This document shows, piece after piece, positions 1,989 through 44,986 of a DNA stretch of 64,000 bases. Made by a program: the position numbers and the translations under genes. The DNA is from a virus (Duplodnaviria; Heunggongvirae; Uroviricota; Caudoviricetes). How positions within the stretch are numbered: position 1 is the first letter of the stretch; each line of letters starts with the position of its first letter. The DNA is taken from positions 1 through 64,000 of IMG/VR virus record IMGVR_UViG_2974574300_000001; one strand, 5' to 3'. The notes under the pieces are model-generated. The model saw only the letters and a list, made by a program, of their open reading frames with translations. It made no database searches and was not told where the DNA came from.

Positions 1989-2006
1989 AAAGTTTTAAAA
2001 AGGGTA

Positions 2007-2035
2007 TTGACAATGTGTTTGATACCCTTTAATAT
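2007..2035 (+). promoter_or_regulatory. sigma70-like promoter (TTGACA-17-TAATAT) overlapped by GGGTAT/ATACCC inverted repeat
   Basis: TTGACA at 2007-2012, 17 nt spacer, TAATAT at 2030-2035, immediately upstream of tRNA array. Confidence 0.6.
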
Positions 2036-2097
2036 GTTCTACATAGAAACGAAACGAGAGCTTTTCTAAGATACTGAAAAATATTTTAAAAAAGTTC

Positions 2098-2127
2098 TTG
2101 ACAATCACTAAAAAATAATGTTAAAGT
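2098..2127 (+). promoter_or_regulatory. possible sigma70-like promoter (TTGACA-17-TTAAAG)
   Basis: TTGACA at 2098-2103; weaker -10 element. Confidence 0.35.
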
Positions 2128-2153
2128 GGTTACATAGAGTTTGAAAAGTTTAT

Positions 2154-2230
2154 CTCTGTTTAGCTCAGCTTGGTAGAGCGTTCCGTTTGGGGCGGTAAGG
2201 CCGGAGGTTCAAGTCCTCCAACAGAGACCA
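2154..2230 (+). tRNA. tRNA-Pro (anticodon TGG)
   Basis: 7 bp acceptor CTCTGTT/AACAGAG, D-arm GCTC..GAGC, anticodon loop TTTGGGG, T-arm GGAGG-TTCAAGT-CCTCC, encoded CCA. Confidence 0.75.
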
Positions 2231-2237
2231 AATTAAT

Positions 2238-2315
2238 GTTCCAGTAGACAAAATGGTATAGTCACCACTCTTTCAAAGTGGATATTTGAGGGTTCAAATC
2301 CCTTCTGGAACGCCA
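2238..2315 (+). tRNA. tRNA-Glu (anticodon TTC)
   Basis: acceptor GTTCCAG/CTGGAAC, anticodon stem CCACT/AGTGG loop CTTTCAA, T-arm GAGGG-TTCAAAT-CCCTT, CCA. Confidence 0.7.
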
Positions 2316-2406
2316 GTTTTGACAGAAGACCAATTACAGCAAACTTAATCTTATTCATCTGAAGGTAAATCGGACAAAGAAGAGATTTGGTCTGGTCATT
2401 AAGAAT

Positions 2407-2483
2407 TGCGGGTATAGAGAAAGGGCGTCTCACATGTCTCATTAGCATGGTATCGGCAGGTTCGACTCCTGCACCCGCCTCCA
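2407..2483 (+). tRNA. tRNA-Met (anticodon CAT)
   Basis: anticodon stem CATGT/GCATG loop CTCATTA, T-arm GCAGG-TTCGACT-CCTGC, acceptor with 1:72 mismatch, CCA. Confidence 0.6.
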
Positions 2484-2566
2484 AATTTACAGAAGACCGT
2501 TTACAGCAATATTTATTAAATTTTTAGCGGAAAAATTGAAAGATACGGTCTGGTAATACTAAACAT

Positions 2567-2643
2567 GGTTAGGAAGCACATAAGGTATGTGCGGTCGCCT
2601 GTTAAGCGAATGGCACAGGGTTCGAATCCCTGACTAACCGCCA
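2567..2643 (+). tRNA. tRNA-Asn (anticodon GTT)
   Basis: acceptor GGTTAGG/ACTAACC, D-stem GCAC/GTGC, anticodon loop CTGTTAA, T-arm CAGGG-TTCGAAT-CCCTG, CCA. Confidence 0.7.
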
Positions 2644-2712
2644 AATTTAGGAGAGAAGCGATTGCTCACCGATTTGTAAGGTGCAAGTCCTTAGCCTGAA
2701 TAGAAATTAAAT

Positions 2713-2800
2713 GTGTCGTTATCCCGTAGATGGTAGCGGTGGGGACTGTAAATCCCTTGTCATTGAGACTCGGTAGGTTCGACTCCTACACGGCACACCA
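2713..2800 (+). tRNA. tRNA-Tyr (anticodon GTA), long variable arm
   Basis: acceptor GTGTCGT/ACGGCAC, anticodon stem GGGGA/TCCCT loop CTGTAAA, long variable arm, T-arm GTAGG-TTCGACT-CCTAC, CCA. Confidence 0.7.
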
Positions 2801-2805
2801 ATAAA

Positions 2806-2882
2806 GGTTATGTAGTTTAATTTGGTTAAAATACTCCCTGTCACGGGAGATGATGAGGGTTCAAATCCCTTCGTAACCGCCA
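2806..2882 (+). tRNA. tRNA-Asp (anticodon GTC)
   Basis: acceptor GGTTATG/CGTAACC, canonical Asp anticodon loop CTGTCAC (weak stem), T-arm GAGGG-TTCAAAT-CCCTT, CCA. Confidence 0.6.
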
Positions 2883-3310
2883 ATTTTGAGAGGGCTATTT
2901 AGCCCCTCCCTTAAAGAGTTCTTACGAGTATTCTTTAAAGGAGCAGAAGACCAAATTCAGCAAGTTACTTAAAATTTCAAGCCAATTTAATTTTGAAAAA
3001 TTTAAAACTTGGTCTGGCTCAACAAATTTACAGAAGACCATTTACAGCAAAACTTAAACAATCTATTTCTCGGTAAAGAAAAGGAGAAGGTTCGATTCCT
3101 TCACTCGGCAGGTGTCGAGTTGGTGTAATGGTAGCACTTAAGATGATAAACAACGGTCTGGTAATTATCTTTGTAGATAAGTTATTAAGCTTACCTGTGA
3201 GTATGCGACCACAAAGGGTGAAAGGGTAAATTCTAGATTTAAACCCAAAAAGGCACATCGCTACAGACCTTAAGCAAGTCTGGGTAGCTTATCTACAAAG
3301 ATAATTTAAT

Positions 3311-3386
3311 GGAAGTGTAGCAGAATGGTGATGCGGCAGACTTTTAATCTGACAGGCGATGGGTTCGAATCCCTCCACTTCTACCA
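3311..3386 (+). tRNA. tRNA-Lys (anticodon TTT)
   Basis: acceptor GGAAGTG/CACTTCT, anticodon loop CTTTTAA, T-loop TTCGAAT, CCA. Confidence 0.65.
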
Positions 3387-3390
3387 ATAT

Positions 3391-3467
3391 GGTTCAGTCG
3401 CAGATAAGGTAATGCAAGGGTCTCATAAGCCCTATGAATGTGGGTTCGATTCCCATCTGAACCTCCA
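3391..3467 (+). tRNA. tRNA-Met or tRNA-Ile2 (anticodon CAT)
   Basis: acceptor GGTTCAG/CTGAACC, anticodon stem AGGGT/GCCCT loop CTCATAA, T-arm GTGGG-TTCGATT-CCCAT, CCA. Confidence 0.7.
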
Positions 3468-3469
3468 AT

Positions 3470-3544
3470 TGTGGGTTAGCATAAATGGTAATGCAAACGG
3501 CTGATAACCGTTAGAAGAGGGTTCGATACCCTCACCTACAACCA
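3470..3544 (+). tRNA. tRNA-Ile (anticodon GAT)
   Basis: acceptor TGTGGGT/ACCTACA, anticodon stem AACGG/CCGTT loop CTGATAA, T-arm GAGGG-TTCGATA-CCCTC, CCA. Confidence 0.7.
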
Positions 3545-3559
3545 ATTTCAATAAAGTTG

Positions 3560-3588
3560 TTGACATTGAGATGTGACTACTTTATAGT
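3560..3588 (+). promoter_or_regulatory. sigma70-like promoter (TTGACA-17-TATAGT) inside tRNA array
   Basis: TTGACA 3560-3565, 17 nt spacer, TATAGT 3583-3588. Confidence 0.6.
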
Positions 3589-3880
3589 AACTAAAATACT
3601 TCAGAATATGTATAATTCAAACACCAATACATGAGCGTTAGACGTAACACAATGTGGGGAAATTTGTTGTACATATTCTGAATAGTTTTCGTTGCGTAGC
3701 GTCTATTTTGCAAATTTAAAATAAATGCAAACGACAATGTTTTTCTGGCAGTAGCTTGATAGGCTAAACACCAGTGAGGTCTTCCAATCCCTCATCAAAG
3801 AATTTGGCGTACTAGCCACGGTATGATTAATAAGGTGGGCATCTTTAAGGGCTTTCTAAGAGAGTCTTTAAAGATAATTA

Positions 3881-3962
3881 CGGGGCGTATCTCAGCGGTC
3901 TTCTAAACCGCCGTTAACCGAGTAAGTGGAGTATGCGGGTTCGAGTCCTGCCGCCTCGACCA
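3881..3962 (+). tRNA. non-canonical tRNA-like gene (anticodon-like hairpin with TCT, no clear D-arm)
   Basis: acceptor CGGGGCG/CGCCTCG, T-arm GCGGG-TTCGAGT-CCTGC, CCA; only a 5 bp/7 nt hairpin GCGGT-CTTCTAA-ACCGC placed where the D-arm should be, followed by 23 nt extra region. Confidence 0.45.
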
Positions 3963-4104
3963 ATTAGTTAGCAGATTACTTAGACGACCTAAGCGGGTCT
4001 TCCTGTAGGGAGGTGGTCTGTATCTCATGTTTTCCAGAACATGTAAATAATCTGAGAAGGGGCTTTACAGTGTTGAGATAATACGGTAAGCTTCGAATTA
4101 TAGT

Positions 4105-4187
4105 ATGGGACGATGTTAAGACTCTAAGGCATGAGCAACGGCTTCCAACACCGTTTCAAAGGGGTTCAACTCCTCCGTCCCATGCCA
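4105..4187 (+). tRNA. non-canonical tRNA-like gene (aberrant D region; anticodon uncertain, possibly CCA)
   Basis: perfect 7 bp acceptor ATGGGAC/GTCCCAT, T-loop TTCAACT, CCA; 26 nt between acceptor and candidate anticodon hairpin ACGGC-TTCCAAC-ACCGT. Confidence 0.45.
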
Positions 4188-4200
4188 AAGTCTTATTAGG

Positions 4201-4288
4201 GGTAGGTAGCGGCTAATGGTAGCCAAACTGTCTTGAAAACAGTTGCCACTGTAGAGATACGGTGAGGGTTCGACTCCTTTACTTACCG
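4201..4288 (+). tRNA. tRNA-Ser (anticodon TGA), type II
   Basis: acceptor GGTAGGT/ACTTACC, 3 bp D-stem, anticodon stem ACTGT/ACAGT loop CTTGAAA, long variable arm, T-loop TTCGACT; CCA not fully encoded. Confidence 0.7.
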
Positions 4289-4545
4289 CCTAATAAGATT
4301 TAAAGCCAAGCTTCATTCGGATGTTGCTTTGGTATCCCTCGTGTATTGTCGTACACACTGATAAAACACCTAGTAGGTGTCACGGAGAAGAGATAATATC
4401 AAGCTCTCCAAAGGTTCTAGTCACCGGATTAAACAAGACTATGCAAAGACCTTTTTAGGTCTTTTTAGAGGGCTTCTAAGGTTATTACAGCTTGTTGTGG
4501 AACCTTGTTGCTTAGGTTCTTAGAAGTTCTCTAAAAAGATTTAAT

Positions 4546-4623
4546 GGGAGATTGACGGTAATTGGTAAACCTACCTCGCTTAGAACGAGGTGTTTGAGGG
4601 TTCGAATCCCTTGTCTCCTACCA
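4546..4623 (+). tRNA. tRNA with anticodon TAG (Leu by anticodon) but short variable arm
   Basis: acceptor GGGAGAT/GTCTCCT, anticodon stem CCTCG/CGAGG loop CTTAGAA, 5 nt variable loop, T-arm GAGGG-TTCGAAT-CCCTT, CCA. Confidence 0.6.
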
Positions 4624-4630
4624 AATTAAT

Positions 4631-4706
4631 GCAGGTGTAGCAAAATGGTTATGCGGCTGACTCTTAATCAGTAAGACGATGGGTTCAATTCCCTCCACCT
4701 GTACCA
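4631..4706 (+). tRNA. tRNA-Lys (anticodon CTT)
   Basis: acceptor GCAGGTG/CACCTGT, anticodon loop CTCTTAA, T-loop TTCAATT, CCA; paralog of 3311-3386. Confidence 0.6.
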
Positions 4707-4712
4707 AACATT

Positions 4713-4788
4713 GGGGATGTAGTTTACATGGTTAAAACATAAGTTTTGCAAACTTGGGAACTGAGTTCAATTCTCAGTGACTCCACCA
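4713..4788 (+). tRNA. tRNA-Ala (anticodon TGC)
   Basis: G3:U70 in acceptor, anticodon stem TAAGT/ACTTG loop TTTGCAA, T-arm CTGAG-TTCAATT-CTCAG, CCA. Confidence 0.6.
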
Positions 4789-4794
4789 ATTAGT

Positions 4795-4869
4795 GCATCC
4801 ATAGTTTAAACGGGAAAATTACAGTCTTCCAAACTGAGGTTGAGGGTTCGATTCCCTCTGGATGCTCCA
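4795..4869 (+). tRNA. tRNA-Trp (anticodon CCA)
   Basis: acceptor GCATCCA/TGGATGC, anticodon loop CTTCCAA, T-arm GAGGG-TTCGATT-CCCTC, CCA. Confidence 0.7.
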
Positions 4870-4875
4870 AACAAT

Positions 4876-4952
4876 GCTGCTTTCGTATAATTGGCTATTA
4901 CACATCCCTTGTAAGGATGGAAATGCAGGTTCGAGTCCTGTGAGCAGCACCA
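4876..4952 (+). tRNA. tRNA-Thr (anticodon TGT)
   Basis: acceptor GCTGCTT/GAGCAGC, anticodon stem CATCC/GGATG loop CTTGTAA, T-arm GCAGG-TTCGAGT-CCTGT, CCA. Confidence 0.7.
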
Positions 4953-5047
4953 ATTCAGAGGTCAAGTGAAAGACCGCTGGTGTCAACTGAAGACCGTAAC
5001 AAATTCCACGGAGTTGAGTTAGCGGCACAACTTCAGACCTCTTTCAC

Positions 5048-5122
5048 ACTCGCTTAGTTTATATGGTAAAACATCACCCTTACAAGATGAAGAAAAAGGT
5101 TCAAGTCCTTTAGTGAGTACCA
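5048..5122 (+). tRNA. tRNA-Val (anticodon TAC)
   Basis: acceptor ACTCGCT/AGTGAGT, D-stem GTTT/AAAC, anticodon loop CTTACAA, T-arm AAAGG-TTCAAGT-CCTTT, CCA. Confidence 0.65.
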
Positions 5123-5123
5123 T

Positions 5124-5202
5124 GTTCCAGTATCCCAATTGGCAGAGAGGCCAGACTTAAAATCTGTGTTATGTATCGGTTCGAATCCGATATGGAGTAC
5201 CA
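5124..5202 (+). tRNA. tRNA with anticodon TAA (Leu by anticodon), short variable arm
   Basis: acceptor GTTCCAG/ATGGAGT (6 of 7 pairs), anticodon stem CCAGA/TCTGT loop CTTAAAA, T-arm ATCGG-TTCGAAT-CCGAT, CCA. Confidence 0.5.
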
Positions 5203-5207
5203 ATTTT

Positions 5208-5283
5208 AGCGGTATAGCATAACTGGCAATGCAGCAGTCTCTGAAGCTGTCCTATTAAGGTTCAAATCCTTATGCCGCTGCCA
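5208..5283 (+). tRNA. tRNA-Gln (anticodon CTG)
   Basis: acceptor AGCGGTA/TGCCGCT, anticodon loop CTCTGAA, T-arm TAAGG-TTCAAAT-CCTTA, CCA. Confidence 0.6.
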
Positions 5284-5314
5284 CTTCTAAGGGTTCTTAC
5301 GAGAGTCCTTAAAT

Positions 5315-5390
5315 GTGGCCTTATCATAAACGGTAATGACCCATGCTGTGAACATGGTCTATACGGGTTCAAATCCCGTAGGTCACCCCA
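5315..5390 (+). tRNA. tRNA-His (anticodon GTG)
   Basis: acceptor GTGGCCT/AGGTCAC, discriminator C, anticodon stem CCATG/CATGG loop CTGTGAA, T-arm ACGGG-TTCAAAT-CCCGT, CCA. Confidence 0.7.
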
Positions 5391-5396
5391 ATTTAT

Positions 5397-5472
5397 AGTC
5401 CAAGTAGCTTATATGGTTAAAGCGCGTGTCTGAAAAACATGAGAAGAGGGTTCAAATCCCACTGGACTACCA
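5397..5472 (+). tRNA. tRNA-Phe (anticodon GAA)
   Basis: D-stem GCTT/AAGC, anticodon stem CGTGT/ACATG loop CTGAAAA, T-loop TTCAAAT, CCA. Confidence 0.65.
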
Positions 5473-5489
5473 ATTTTCAAAGGTGCTTA

Positions 5490-6224
5490 ATGAAAGAGAT
5501 GACAGGACAAGGTAAGGAGATTTTTAATCTCTTAAAAACCGGTAAAGGGTTTTCTAACCCACTTATTACTGGTGCAGTAGTTCTCGGTGGAACCGTAGCT
5601 GCCTCTACATCACTTGTAAGCTCTATTAGCTCTGTAACAGACCCTACAATGAAGGAGAAGCTTGTTGCTGCTGGACTCACAACAGTCCTTCTAAACAGCT
5701 TTACAACAAGCCTGACAAGCACTACAGCAACTACTAAGACCCTAACAGACTATGGTCAAAAGTCTATTGATGAGTTTTCATCACGTATGCAGGTAGCAAA
5801 GGGGTATTCCAATGTTATGGGTGCAGCAGGAGAACAAGTTGGTTGTACACCATTTAGTGGTATTATGGGTGTTGCTACAGAGTATGGTCAGCAAGCTATT
5901 GACACGATTAACAGCACACTAGACAGTGTTAACGGTGTGTTAAGTGACTTACAAGACGCTATTGATAAGGGTCTTGATACTGTTTCTGATTTAGCTAACC
6001 AAGCTGTTAGCAAGATTAATGAAGGTATCTCAAAGATTACAGCTTATGCAGATGAAGTTGTGCAGATGATTGAAGAAGAAGCTGCCCTTATTGCAGAGTA
6101 CCTTAAAACGAATATCAATGGGTTCTTAGCAGGTATCTTACCAGACTGGTTTGATGATGCTTGGAAAACTGGTGTAATCGACACTATTGCAACACCAGAA
6201 ATGAAGAACGCATTACAGAAATAA
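5490..6224 (+). CDS. hypothetical protein (Ser/Thr-rich N-terminal half)
   Basis: ORF track 5439-6224 trimmed to first ATG after tRNA-Phe; AGGTG RBS. Confidence 0.5.
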   Translation: MKEMTGQGKEIFNLLKTGKGFSNPLITGAVVLGGTVAASTSLVSSISSVTDPTMKEKLVAAGLTTVLLNSFTTSLTSTTATTKTLTDYGQKSIDEFSSRMQVAKGYSNVMGAAGEQVGCTPFSGIMGVATEYGQQAIDTINSTLDSVNGVLSDLQDAIDKGLDTVSDLANQAVSKINEGISKITAYADEVVQMIEEEAALIAEYLKTNINGFLAGILPDWFDDAWKTGVIDTIATPEMKNALQK

Positions 6225-6225
6225 T

Positions 6226-6318
6226 GGAAGATTAACCCTAAAAGGTAAGGGAGCAGTTTGCTAAACTGCCAGTAGCTGAGAAATCGGTGTACCAGTTCAA
6301 GTCTGGTATCTTCCTCCA
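6226..6318 (+). tRNA. tRNA-Ser (anticodon GCT), type II
   Basis: perfect acceptor GGAAGAT/ATCTTCC, 3 bp D-stem CCC/GGG, anticodon stem GCAGT/ACTGC loop TTGCTAA, long variable arm, T-arm ACCAG-TTCAAGT-CTGGT, CCA. Confidence 0.75.
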
Positions 6319-6322
6319 ATCT

Positions 6323-6398
6323 GAATCCGTGACAGAAATGGATATGTGCCTGTCTGCAAAACAGGTTTATAAGGGTTCAAGTCCCTTCGGATTCTCCA
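6323..6398 (+). tRNA. tRNA-Cys (anticodon GCA)
   Basis: acceptor GAATCCG/CGGATTC, anticodon stem CCTGT/ACAGG loop CTGCAAA, T-arm AAGGG-TTCAAGT-CCCTT, CCA. Confidence 0.75.
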
Positions 6399-6435
6399 AG
6401 TTATTTTACTCTCTCTCAATTAAAATAATAATAAT

Positions 6436-6495
6436 GCCCTGCTATAAGTATTCTTCCTTTCGCTACCGAAGAGTATTTTTAGACAGGGCTTTTTT
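6436..6495 (+). terminator. long hairpin followed by T6 (possible terminator after tRNA array)
   Basis: GCCCTG ... CAGGGC closing stem with nested AGTATTCTTC/GAAGAGTATT stem, then TTTTTT. Confidence 0.4.
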
Positions 6496-6560
6496 ACAGA
6501 GTTATACTTTATAGGAAGACTTATACAGTATGTCTCTGACGTACATTGTGGTTTCTCCTT

Positions 6561-6586
6561 GACGGTCTCTGTGCCGTCTTTTTTAA
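6561..6586 (+). terminator. rho-independent terminator
   Basis: GACGG-TCTCTGTG-CCGTC hairpin followed by TTTTTT. Confidence 0.65.
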
Positions 6587-6620
6587 GGGGAAACAAGATT
6601 TATTATTTGGAGAAAACATA

Positions 6621-33842: not shown

Positions 33843-34124
33843 AATGACCTCAAAGTTATATTAAATTTTGTATTACATTGAGTATAAAAATAAGCTATAA
33901 CACCTGACTTGTCAACAGATTTTATAGCTTATTTGGCAGATTTTTTATAAGGCTACTGCCATCCTTCCATACCAGACTACGCCATGCCAGACCAGACTTC
34001 ACATCACCTTACCGTGCAATACATCGCTTAAAACCCTCTTAGAAGACTCTTAAGTGATGCTGGTGAGTACCCGTTGGTTCATGCTGCTCAGTATACTCAC
34101 CAAATTTTCTATGTCAACAACTTT

Positions 34125-43008: not shown

Positions 43009-44986
43009 AGGTCGTAAATTGAAAGAGGCTGGTCAGTTTATTGGTCATTGTGCATGTCCACGTTGTGGTTCATCAGATGCTGGTTCAATCTACCATCATG
43101 ACGATGATTCTTATTCGATGACTTGCTTTAGCTGTAACAAAGGTTTCCCAGAGTGGGATTTTGATAAAGGACAAATCGTGAGCACTTATTCTACTGGTTC
43201 AGACAATAAAAACCGTACTTTCCGTGGAATGGATTTAGAAGATGTAAAAGAAAACCTTGAAGCAATGGACTTGAAAGACAGGAAGATTCCTGCAAAAGTT
43301 CTTGAGCGTTTGGGTATCAAAGTTGACATTGACAGTGACGGTGAAATTGACGCACATTTCTACCCAACTTACAAACGCAATGAAGATGGCAAGCTAGAGC
43401 ACGTTGGTTACCGTGTACGTCATCGTTATCCAGAAGACCATCCAAAAGAACACCTACGAGGTAAGCTAAAAGACTTTTCAGGTGGTGTTGGAGACATTAA
43501 AGGTGAACTGGCAATGTTCGGTTCATGGATTGCTCCAGAAGGTGGTAACCGTCTATTCATCTGGGAAGGTGAGATGGAATGTGCGACAGCAATCTATATG
43601 ACTTCTCTTGCGATTAAGGACAAGTCTCGTCGTAAAAATTACTGTCACGTATCTGTTCCATCAGGTGCAAACATCAAGTCTATCAAAGATAACTATCAGT
43701 ACATTACATCATTTGATGAAATCTACTTGTGCTTTGATAACGATGAAGCAGGTGCTAAAGCTACCAAAGAGGCTGCTGGCATTCTCCCTATCGAGAAGGT
43801 TCGTTTATTCCAGTATCCAGAGGGTGTAAAAGACCTTAACGAATGGTGGACAAAGTTCTATAAAGAGAAAGATACAGTTCTGGAAGGATTTAAGCAGCGT
43901 ATCTACAATGCACCCCGTTACTGCCCTGCTGGTATCAAGAACTTCGCAGATGGTTTTGAGGCAATGAAGAACCGTGGTCAGATTCCATTGATTCCTTTCC
44001 CAGAATCATTCGGAGATTTGAACAGACTGACTTATGGTGGTTATGGGCTAGGTGAGATTACAACTCTGGCAGCACCATCTTCAGTGGGTAAATCAGCATA
44101 CACTCGTGAAATGATTTACACAGCTTGGAAAGATACCGATTACAATATTGGTGTAATTCCTGTAGAGGATACCTATGAAGAGTTGATGGAGATGCTCTGT
44201 GCAATCCACCTGAGCAAGCAGATTTCTGAGATTCCTTATGACGAACGTGATTGGGATGAATTGAAGGAAGCACACGCAGAACTATCTAAAGGTCGTCGTA
44301 TCCACATCGTAGACCATCAAGGGGCAATTGACCAAGATAACTTGCTGGAGTTTGTTGACTATCTTGTTAATAGCCTTGATTGTAAGATTATTATTCTTGA
44401 CCCTATTACGTTGGCTCTGTCACGTTCAGATACGGATGAAGAGGAAGTTTTGTCTGAGCTATTGCGCCGTTGCAAACGCTACCAGTATGCACAGGTGAAC
44501 GTCTGCCACGTTCGTAAAAGTGCAGGTGGTCAGAAGGCTAACTCTGAAGGTGGAGATATCTCTGAAGAGGATATTAAAGGTTCTGGTGCGTATTTCCAGA
44601 TTTCTATGAACAACATTCTGTTAATGCGTAACAAGGTTGACCCAGACCCTGTTAAGAAAAACCTGACAAAAATCAAGTTAACTAAATGTCGTCGTCACGG
44701 TAAGTCAACGGGTATTGCTGGTCATACTTGGTACAATCCAGATACAGGACGCCTCATCAAAGCATCTGGTTGCGGAGTTGACATTGATGGTGCAGCAGAG
44801 AATATTCGCCAACAGTTTGGTATTGGCGAAGCTGAAGACCATTACGATGACTCTTTGCCACATTATGAGGATGAAGTGTTTGACCGTGAGACTGGTGAAG
44901 TCTATACTGAAGAGCAGCGTCAAAGCTCAACGATTCCACCTGTATTAAGTGAGGATGCAGATGACTGCCCATTCGAAACTGAGTGA
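43001..44986 (+). CDS. DNA primase-helicase (T7 gp4-like)
   Basis: N-terminal zinc-binding CPRCGSSD...CFSCNKGF, primase core, Walker A PSSVGKSAYT in helicase domain. Confidence 0.8.
   Translation: MSKGRKLKEAGQFIGHCACPRCGSSDAGSIYHHDDDSYSMTCFSCNKGFPEWDFDKGQIVSTYSTGSDNKNRTFRGMDLEDVKENLEAMDLKDRKIPAKVLERLGIKVDIDSDGEIDAHFYPTYKRNEDGKLEHVGYRVRHRYPEDHPKEHLRGKLKDFSGGVGDIKGELAMFGSWIAPEGGNRLFIWEGEMECATAIYMTSLAIKDKSRRKNYCHVSVPSGANIKSIKDNYQYITSFDEIYLCFDNDEAGAKATKEAAGILPIEKVRLFQYPEGVKDLNEWWTKFYKEKDTVLEGFKQRIYNAPRYCPAGIKNFADGFEAMKNRGQIPLIPFPESFGDLNRLTYGGYGLGEITTLAAPSSVGKSAYTREMIYTAWKDTDYNIGVIPVEDTYEELMEMLCAIHLSKQISEIPYDERDWDELKEAHAELSKGRRIHIVDHQGAIDQDNLLEFVDYLVNSLDCKIIILDPITLALSRSDTDEEEVLSELLRRCKRYQYAQVNVCHVRKSAGGQKANSEGGDISEEDIKGSGAYFQISMNNILLMRNKVDPDPVKKNLTKIKLTKCRRHGKSTGIAGHTWYNPDTGRLIKASGCGVDIDGAAENIRQQFGIGEAEDHYDDSLPHYEDEVFDRETGEVYTEEQRQSSTIPPVLSEDADDCPFETE

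Follow-up and report, generated by a model that had tools for sequence, protein, structure and literature searches.

What is an inverted repeat doing just downstream of a promoter, in the middle of a phage tRNA cluster? The question arises at 3600-3682 of a stretch of phage DNA of 64,000 nucleotides (the window), which comes from a Felix O1-like myovirus (Felixounavirus) and is 99.9% identical over the stretch to the Salmonella phages Mushroom and VSe11. The cluster has 22 tRNA genes, and the repeat sits in one of its gaps, 335 nt long, between tRNA-Ile (3470-3544) and an odd tRNA-like gene (3881-3962). A sequence-only reading of the region had proposed a leader hairpin or a regulatory RNA structure. 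Two features go beyond that proposal: the interior of the hairpin is more conserved than its stem, and a predicted tmRNA-like gene follows it.

The inverted repeat, its fold and its promoter

The arms of the repeat, TTCAGAATATGTA (3600-3612) and TACATATTCTGAA (3670-3682), are exact reverse complements, and the 57-nt spacer described earlier follows from their coordinates. Perfect inverted repeats of at least 13 nt with a spacer of at most 100 nt occur only twice in the whole window, the sole other one lying at 33888-33934. Since 0.15 such repeats are expected per composition-matched shuffled window, and 6 of 40 shuffles have one, the repeat taken alone is unusual but not decisive, and could still be due to chance.

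The stem reaches 17 bp when U.G pairs are allowed (Table 1), and looser pairing gives 27-nt arms of 81% complementarity (3589-3615/3667-3693). Below the 17-bp stem, and separated from it by a 2x2 internal loop, the predicted fold has 5 further bp; together they make up the roughly two turns of mostly uninterrupted dsRNA that an RNase III substrate has. Folding of the + strand gives -27.7 kcal/mol for 3596-3686 (z -4.7 vs shuffles) and -42.2 kcal/mol for 3590-3745 (z -5.0), and the - strand folds less well (-34.9 kcal/mol, z -3.3). No Rfam family matches the hairpin itself significantly, the only matches being spurious ones to microRNA precursors, far below threshold.

The promoter reported next to the repeat is also there, with 11 of the 12 consensus positions. 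It is the best sigma-70 match within 2000-6600, a region in which the total of promoter-like sites equals the shuffle expectation. Its geometry and conservation predict a transcript that would begin about 4 nt before the hairpin. The promoter is identical in phage VpaE1, which lacks the hairpin, and is conserved in relatives with and without it.

Table 1. Features of the hairpin locus and of the RNA that follows it (window coordinates)
Feature	Position	Strand	Remarks
Sigma-70-type promoter TTGACA-17-TATAGT	3560-3588	+	Consensus 11/12; predicted start ~3595-3597
Hairpin, stem-closed 5' module	3600-3682	+	Outer stem 3600-3616 with 3666-3682
CAAACACCA, invariant single-stranded segment, 5' side of interior	3618-3626	+	Same in 13/13 distinct copies, two virus families
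Inner helix ACAU/AUGU (3629-3632 with 3652-3655) around GACG-capped 6-bp hairpin (3635-3650)	3629-3655	+	
GGAAAUUUGUUGU, invariant segment, 3' side of interior	3658-3670	+	Runs into right arm
UAGUUUUCGU, conserved 5' motif	3683-3692	+	Opens the core of every family member
Hairpin UAUUUU-GCAAAUUU-AAAAUA upstream of tag, PK1 position	3704-3723	+	Varies between lineages
Tag frame GCA AAC GAC AAT GTT TTT CTG GCA GTA GCT TGA	3727-3759	+	ANDNVFLAVA*
Helix-5-like hairpin, stop codons in loop	3745-3774	+	CUGG 3745-3748 with CCAG 3771-3774
PK2	3775-3807	+	Stem UGAGG (3775-3779)/CCUCA (3790-3794); loop CCAA (3784-3787)/UUGG (3804-3807)
PK3	3810-3838	+	UACU (3810-3813)/GGUA (3820-3823); CCAC (3816-3819)/GUGG (3835-3838); loop UGAUUAAUAA
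16-bp terminal hairpin, last element of the RNA ahead of the next tRNA-like gene	3841-3875	+	z -4.8
Adjacent tRNA-like element (TLD-like)	3881-3962	+	Ala identity marks C1-G72, G3.U70, A73; encoded CCA

Covariation in the hairpin

Thirteen distinct copies of the hairpin, from Felixounavirus and Chaseviridae, align without gaps, and pairs were counted in them for three elements: the outer stem, the inner ACAU/AUGU helix and the GACG-capped hairpin. Among these copies 96.6% of the stem cells are paired, as against 25-46% in slid controls, and nine pairs are changed on both sides. Six of these are in the outer helix, which is 97.3% paired and in which 6 of the 17 pairs are flipped among copies. 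The other three are in the 3629-3655 helix, which is 95.4% paired; its pair 3637-3648 takes five pair types. In the ACAU/AUGU inner helix itself, changes (A-U/G.U) are confined to one side, which leaves it without covariation support. Wobbles of the U.G type are conserved at 3613-3669 and 3616-3666, where the opposite strand would have A.C. Most of the covariation comes from one deep split, between Felixounavirus and Chaseviridae, so the nine changes reflect few independent events. Most Felixounaviruses have one uncompensated mismatch in the outer stem, the perfect copy of the window being the exception.

These comparisons settle the reality of the inverted repeat as the closing stem of a structured RNA domain of roughly 90 nt, and the changes on both sides of pairs together with the conserved U.G wobbles place it on the + strand. 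We regard the hairpin, with high confidence, as a selected + strand RNA structure that belongs to the tmRNA-like gene described below. The unpaired interior (CAAACACCA, GGAAAUUUGUUGU and the GACG loop) is invariant across the two virus families while the stem drifts, which implies a sequence-specific partner.

A tmRNA-like RNA follows the hairpin

In alignments with Chaseviridae and Erwinia phage M7, conservation extends about 200 nt 3' of the hairpin. The tags, the sub-threshold Rfam alignments and the covariation of helix 5, PK2 and PK3 identify 3683-3880 as a predicted tmRNA-like RNA (the core, below) that resembles the message-carrying half of tmRNA and is unannotated in Felix O1-like phages. 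The whole small RNA would start near 3596 and end near 3880, where the next tRNA-like gene has its 5' edge. All cores start with (GA)UAGUUUUCG, and the right arm of the window's hairpin ends 1 nt before this motif.

The tag frame is directly preceded by a conserved AUAAAU. In E. coli, the tmRNA tag is ANDENYALAA; the tag of the window likewise begins at a GCA resume codon (GCN in tmRNA tags) and has a degron-like end. Its length is constant, at 10 codons plus stop in 60/60 distinct cores, which show 15 peptides in 23 nucleotide versions; every peptide fits AN(D/E)....(A/V)A. Variation is greatest at the third codon positions, which vary in 9 of the 10 codons and include synonymous series for Val, Ala and Leu. 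The helix-5-like hairpin, which holds both UGA and UAG in its loop, is 97% paired with two covarying pairs. In PK2 the stem is 100% paired with three covarying pairs, and the loop-tail pair changes from A-U to G-C in 9 of 18 sequences. PK3 is of the H type, and both of its stems are fully paired in 40/40 sequence variants, with seven sequence versions per stem. Pseudoknots thus flank the tag as in tmRNA: PK2 and PK3 are strong, and the element at the PK1 position is variable and only suggested, as is a pairing of its loop (GCAA) with UUGC (3693-3696). In another Felixounavirus (L145), a cargo-bearing module occupies the position of the terminal hairpin. Comparison of the cores points to clear purifying selection, which has kept the length and codon pattern of the tag, the context of the resume codon, and two pseudoknots.

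Rfam tmRNA models (RF00023 and relatives) align residue by residue with the tag region (~45-60 nt) at 15-35 bits, against thresholds of 47-84, and the core reaches the gathering threshold with no tmRNA model. ARAGORN calls no tmRNA at the locus. No acceptor stem, T-arm or P2 helix is joined to the core, and the tRNA-like domain of a tmRNA is thus missing from it; in most lineages a custom scan finds no acceptor-plus-T-arm element with G3.U70 within 700 nt. GGGGCU/AGCUCCA ends in a lambdoid copy were considered as a tRNA-like domain and rejected, as they belong to independent hairpins.

A possible link with the host tmRNA is given by the 5' motif, UAGUUUUCGU, an exact 10-nt complement of ACGAAAACUA, positions 97-106 of E. 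coli ssrA, within codons 3-6 of the tag ORF. Complement matches of that length to the ssrA tag ORF occur in 17 of 500 shuffles, and an antisense interaction is a marginal lead only. No significant pairing of the phage RNA with ssrA was seen, and global duplex folding gave no usable signal.

Neighbouring elements in the tRNA cluster

The element that follows the core (3881-3962) lacks a D-arm; its anticodon-like loop reads CUUCUAA, and its 3' half is similar to the ssrA 3' end of E. coli. It is not called by ARAGORN and scores 31.7 bits with the Rfam tRNA model. It is a separate, closed tRNA-like fold with no P2 helix to the core, and in other Felixounaviruses its slot holds an ordinary tRNA-Arg(TCT). 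A linkage of the hairpin to this TLD-like gene was rejected, because all four combinations of presence and absence occur.

Gaps of the tRNA cluster hold three more long-stem modules, at 3163-3306, 3841-3875 and 4455-4544, with stems of 24, 16 and 26 bp, respectively, and z scores of -4.8 to -6.3; two of them have structured interiors. Possibly they are boundary or processing elements of the hairpin's kind. Other irregular sequences were noted in the cluster. At ~4107-4190 a tRNA-like sequence, uncalled by both ARAGORN and Rfam, combines acceptor strands ATGGGAC/GTCCCAT and a subsequent GCCA with T-arm GGGGTTCAACTCCTC and a UCC-like loop, CTTCCAA. At 3085-3150 a T-arm-like GGTTCGATTCC and a 3' strand come before a D-arm-like GTTGGTGTAATGGTAGCAC, so that the usual order within a tRNA is inverted; it may be what is left of a tRNA, or a permuted fragment. 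A 31-nt repeat, TT(G/T)ACAGAAGACCnnTTACAGCAA, is present in four copies between tRNA genes (2319, 2486, 2940 and 3027), one of which scores promoter-like. The tRNA at 2806-2882 is given a 4-base anticodon (gtca) by ARAGORN, and its homologue in GenBank is tRNA-Asp(GTC).

Distribution of the core and of the hairpin

Cores were recovered by pattern search and BLAST. A bare 14-mer scan of IMG/VR yielded chance matches for the most part, and so did a two-part pattern applied to bacterial genomes, where just 2 of 120 loci were real. The core is present at 79 IMG/VR loci, lambdoid prophages included. Phage records with it number 370 and belong to Ounavirinae, Chaseviridae, Drexlerviridae, Nonanavirus and Schitoviridae, and about 13% of complete E. 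coli genomes carry it (726 of 5,426). None of the records found annotates it as an RNA: it is either unannotated or mis-annotated as small hypothetical proteins. The open-access literature on phage tmRNA-like RNAs, ssrA-like elements, anti-sRNAs and Pas sRNAs gave no description of the element; an earlier account may exist elsewhere.

The hairpin is found at equal length in about 90 Felixounaviruses, Felix O1 included, and in about 37 Chaseviridae; some two-thirds of Felixounaviruses are without the segment. In VpaE1, a 91-nt segment (3593-3683) holding the 83-nt hairpin is replaced by 2 nt, a net absence of 89 nt, and promoter and core are unchanged. The hairpin is an optional, position-specific module. 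The window holds a single copy of its cargo, and in viral and metagenome collections 14/14 true copies of cargo of the window type lie immediately 5' of a tag-encoding core. In other lineages different stem-closed modules, with covarying stems and variable cargos, some of them tRNA-like, take the hairpin's place.

The 64 distinct contexts of the core sort by what lies upstream. In 19 there is a promoter directly upstream and no hairpin, and in 37 there is no promoter and always a stem-closed cassette (26 scored automatically; the other 11, bulged or offset, judged by eye). Promoter and hairpin occur together in only 8 of the 64, all of them Felixounavirus of the window's type. Promoters equivalent to that of the window lie directly upstream of the core in M7, Bas77, PJ16 and MK54.

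Among the cassettes, those of lambdoid late leaders and T1-like phages have the form ACAACAGGTAAGAGCATT...cargo...AGTGCTCTTTCCGTTGTG (L127, L128, L028 and L316-L318). Like the hairpin, the lambdoid late-leader cassettes stand 0-25 nt 5' of the core (sometimes 3'), with covarying stems of 12-21 bp and variable cargo, but their stem and cargo sequences differ from those of the window; homology is no more than suggested, by a graded similarity of the stems. No earlier characterisation of them was found in the open-access literature. The cassette of lambda (44,785-44,862; L345) comes directly after the 6S terminator and overlaps the annotated orf-64. CACAACA-rich linkers often lie between lambdoid and T1-like cassettes and resemble GcvB target sites (compare AgvB). 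A cargo of about 30 nt, CCCUUAUGGGGCUUGGCUUAAAUGCA, recurs in cassettes of lambdoid prophages, Klebsiella phage MK54 and one Felixounavirus (L127, L318, L145 and L177), either 5' or 3' of the core. In Yersinia phage PYps3T (L004, 2575-2680), an extra hairpin of 106 nt, flanked by a GAAGTA duplication, lies between a window-type hairpin and the core. At locus L099 the same 106-nt hairpin adjoins the core, and upstream of that core a different hairpin plus about 300 nt of extra sequence replace the window-type hairpin. Erwinia phage M7 (L005, 590-757) has, just upstream of the core promoter, a tRNA-like element of about 170 nt that begins with GGGUGAUUCUG..., has a T-arm and ends with ...AAUCACUCGCCA. 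Its 5' end resembles that of tmRNA, it has G.U at 2:71, and it receives no Rfam call.

Proposed role of the hairpin

On balance we lean towards reading the hairpin as a 5' boundary stem, with conserved cargo, at the 5' end of the tmRNA-like RNA. Long stems flank the RNAs of rRNA operons and T7 early RNA as RNase III stalks, and stem-loops such as that of the ompA leader act as 5'-terminal stabilising stems. In geometry the hairpin resembles both, and this likeness is the basis of the mechanism proposed here; those elements, however, usually have no invariant interior. The boundary role itself is argued for by the separation of contexts with a promoter alone (19) from those with a cassette alone (37), by the other stems of 16-26 bp in the gaps of the cluster, and by the cassette of lambda.

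How the stem might act, by processing, insulation or stabilisation, is modelled only tentatively. Where the core is part of a longer transcript, a long stem would insulate it, so that the core folds independently. To judge from geometry, RNase III cutting at the 17 + 5-bp stem, or RNase E cutting at the adjoining A/U-rich UAGUUUU, would leave a defined mature 5' end at UAGUUUUCGU, the same end that promoter-driven cores have. In the window the stem lies about 4 nt from the 5' triphosphate, and it would serve mainly as protection against 5'-end-dependent decay. Since the promoter already sets the 5' end here, and some two-thirds of Felixounaviruses manage without the hairpin, any benefit it brings is modest or conditional. 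A boundary or stability role alone does not account for an interior that is invariant across two virus families; the interior loops may bind an additional, sequence-specific partner. GcvB was considered as the partner of the CA-rich loop and rejected (13/300 shuffles in the window, 66/300 in Chaseviridae).

Alternative explanations

The invariant loops within a covarying stem could also mean that the hairpin is itself the product, its stem serving as a processing stalk, as around 16S and 23S rRNA, that releases the interior of about 55 nt as a small RNA. The interior would then bind a host or phage protein or RNA, and adjacency to the core would reflect co-expression only. Equivalent stems elsewhere do carry recurring, different cargos, some tRNA-like, and one cargo is found on either side of the core. 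In viral and metagenome collections, however, cargo of the window type was not found away from the core, the search for a partner gave none (neither GcvB nor ssrA pairs significantly), and no Rfam family matches. We consider a released small RNA rather unlikely. Less probable still, and in our estimate improbable, is that the hairpin is the region of joined ends of a circularly permuted (two-piece) tmRNA, its arms being helix P2. Here UUCAAAC (3616-3622) with ACCA (3623-3626) would be the 3' acceptor strand and end, GUGGGGA (3654-3660) the 5' strand, and 3627-3653 an excised linker, so that processing would leave an acceptor helix without T-arm tethered to the core. The Rfam permuted model does align GUGGGGAAAUUUGUU with its GGGGgUGaAaUGGuU 5' acceptor segment and the right arm with a P2 strand, ACCA does follow the candidate 3' strand, and three variable positions of the helix change towards pairing. 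Yet the match scores 24.9 bits against a threshold of 47. The candidate helix (3616-3622/3654-3660) is only 78% paired, shows no change on both sides, and takes up part of the sequence that forms the ACAU/AUGU inner helix in the better-paired model. At 3:70 there is G.A or U-A rather than the G.U needed for alanylation, no T-arm lies inside or before the hairpin, where the acceptor piece of two-piece tmRNA (RF04321) would have one, and hairpins of other lineages have unrelated interiors that lack ACCA.

The leader proposed by the sequence-only reading holds in one part: the + strand has an RNA structure that begins some 4 nt past the predicted start, with covariation and a conserved promoter. 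The other part fails, in that there is no mRNA leader and no sign of a switch or attenuator; the structure is an optional 5' domain of the stable-RNA gene 3683-3880. A cis-regulatory leader for the downstream RNA and tRNA genes, whether attenuator, terminator or ligand- or protein-responsive switch, would fit the position directly after the promoter and the U-rich stretch UAGUUUUCGUU that comes next. The U-rich motif, however, belongs to the conserved core and is present where the hairpin is not; a terminator scan made no call; and an A/U-rich 17-bp stem with a 49-nt interior is unlike intrinsic terminators. No conserved, mutually exclusive alternative fold was found, and the hairpin is dispensable in close relatives that have the same promoter and downstream genes. 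Such a leader is very unlikely. A miniature mobile DNA element (MITE-like) or a recombination scar without RNA function would also produce sharply bounded presence or absence among near-identical phages, the sharing of the hairpin by two unrelated virus families, and the PYps3T insertion of a 106-nt hairpin with its GAAGTA duplication. In place of dispersed copies, though, each genome has one, at a constant position 5' of the core, no target-site duplication is visible at the edges of the hairpin, and the compensatory changes with G.U pairs indicate selection on the + strand RNA fold, all of which makes a mobile element or scar a highly improbable explanation. Finally, some GenBank records annotate a protein of 48 aa from the minus-strand ORF 3591-3737, to which the repeat would be incidental, and automatic annotations call small hypothetical proteins here. 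The ORF exists, but it has stop codons in Chaseviridae homologues, its frame is destroyed by the 89-nt absence in hairpin-less phages, and substitutions follow base pairing, not codons; the chance that the region encodes this protein is close to negligible.

Relation to known tmRNAs

The tag of the core, like that of one-piece tmRNA (SsrA), has 10 residues, is of the AND... type and ends in hydrophobic-Ala-(Ala/Val)-Ala. Also shared are the A-rich upstream context (AUA at -6 to -4), the GCA resume codon, the display of stop codons in the loop of a hairpin, and pseudoknots flanking the tag. The core differs in that the position of the 5' acceptor/P2 strand is taken by a transcript start or a closed hairpin. 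Two-piece tmRNA, known from alpha-proteobacteria, some beta-proteobacteria and cyanobacteria, is the best-scoring Rfam family for the locus (24.9-34.9 bits) and resembles the locus in topology, in that a long helix topped by a linker stands shortly before PK1. Its acceptor piece, consisting of P2 3' strand, T-arm, 3' acceptor strand and CCA upstream of the coding piece, is however absent here.

The phage tmRNAs given by tmRNA specialists are limited to those of the Bxz1 group and Bacillus phage G, plus an RNA of mycobacteriophage DS6A that consists of the TLD only and is the one half-molecule reported from a phage (PMC4131195, PMC11915505). Like the core, all are phage-carried tmRNA derivatives, and DS6A also retains one half only. 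The mycobacteriophages of the Bxz1 group and phage G, however, have complete tmRNAs and DS6A the tRNA-like half, whereas the RNA described here represents the opposite half, tag and pseudoknots, in enterobacterial phages; these do not figure in the phage-tmRNA surveys (PMC4131195, PMC11915505). The rnaC and rnaD of T4 offer another parallel, as small stable RNAs within a phage tRNA cluster whose ends are presumably made by tRNA-processing enzymes. Homology to them was rejected, a generic T-arm motif alone being matched.

Implications

The main interest of the locus lies in a widespread, unannotated tag-encoding RNA that has no joined tRNA-like domain; the hairpin is a modest, optional module of it. 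For annotation, a stem-closed module directly 5' of UAGUUUUCG can be taken to mark the start of a core RNA. The core is spread across myo-, sipho- and podoviruses, and near-isogenic natural pairs of phages with and without the hairpin exist.

It is thought that tmRNA works only through physical coupling of its tRNA-like and mRNA-like halves. A core without its own tRNA-like domain could then be part of a split or stripped-down form of trans-translation, used by enterobacterial phages of at least six lineages, in which a separate partner delivers the core to stalled ribosomes. We rate such a system as distinctly unlikely. Candidate partners would be the TLD-like RNA at 3881-3962, the host tmRNA/SmpB, or an acceptor helix made from the hairpin by processing at ACCA (3626) and G (3654); in a split system the two halves would be connected through the hairpin, as a docking or processing element. 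If it were real, infected cells would tag proteins with a peptide specified by the phage. There are two possibilities for what the core does: it may be the phage's own tag template, delivered to ribosomes, or it may be a tmRNA mimic that interferes with ribosome rescue or host tagging. Felix O1, T1-like and lambdoid systems are settings in which both would be directly testable.
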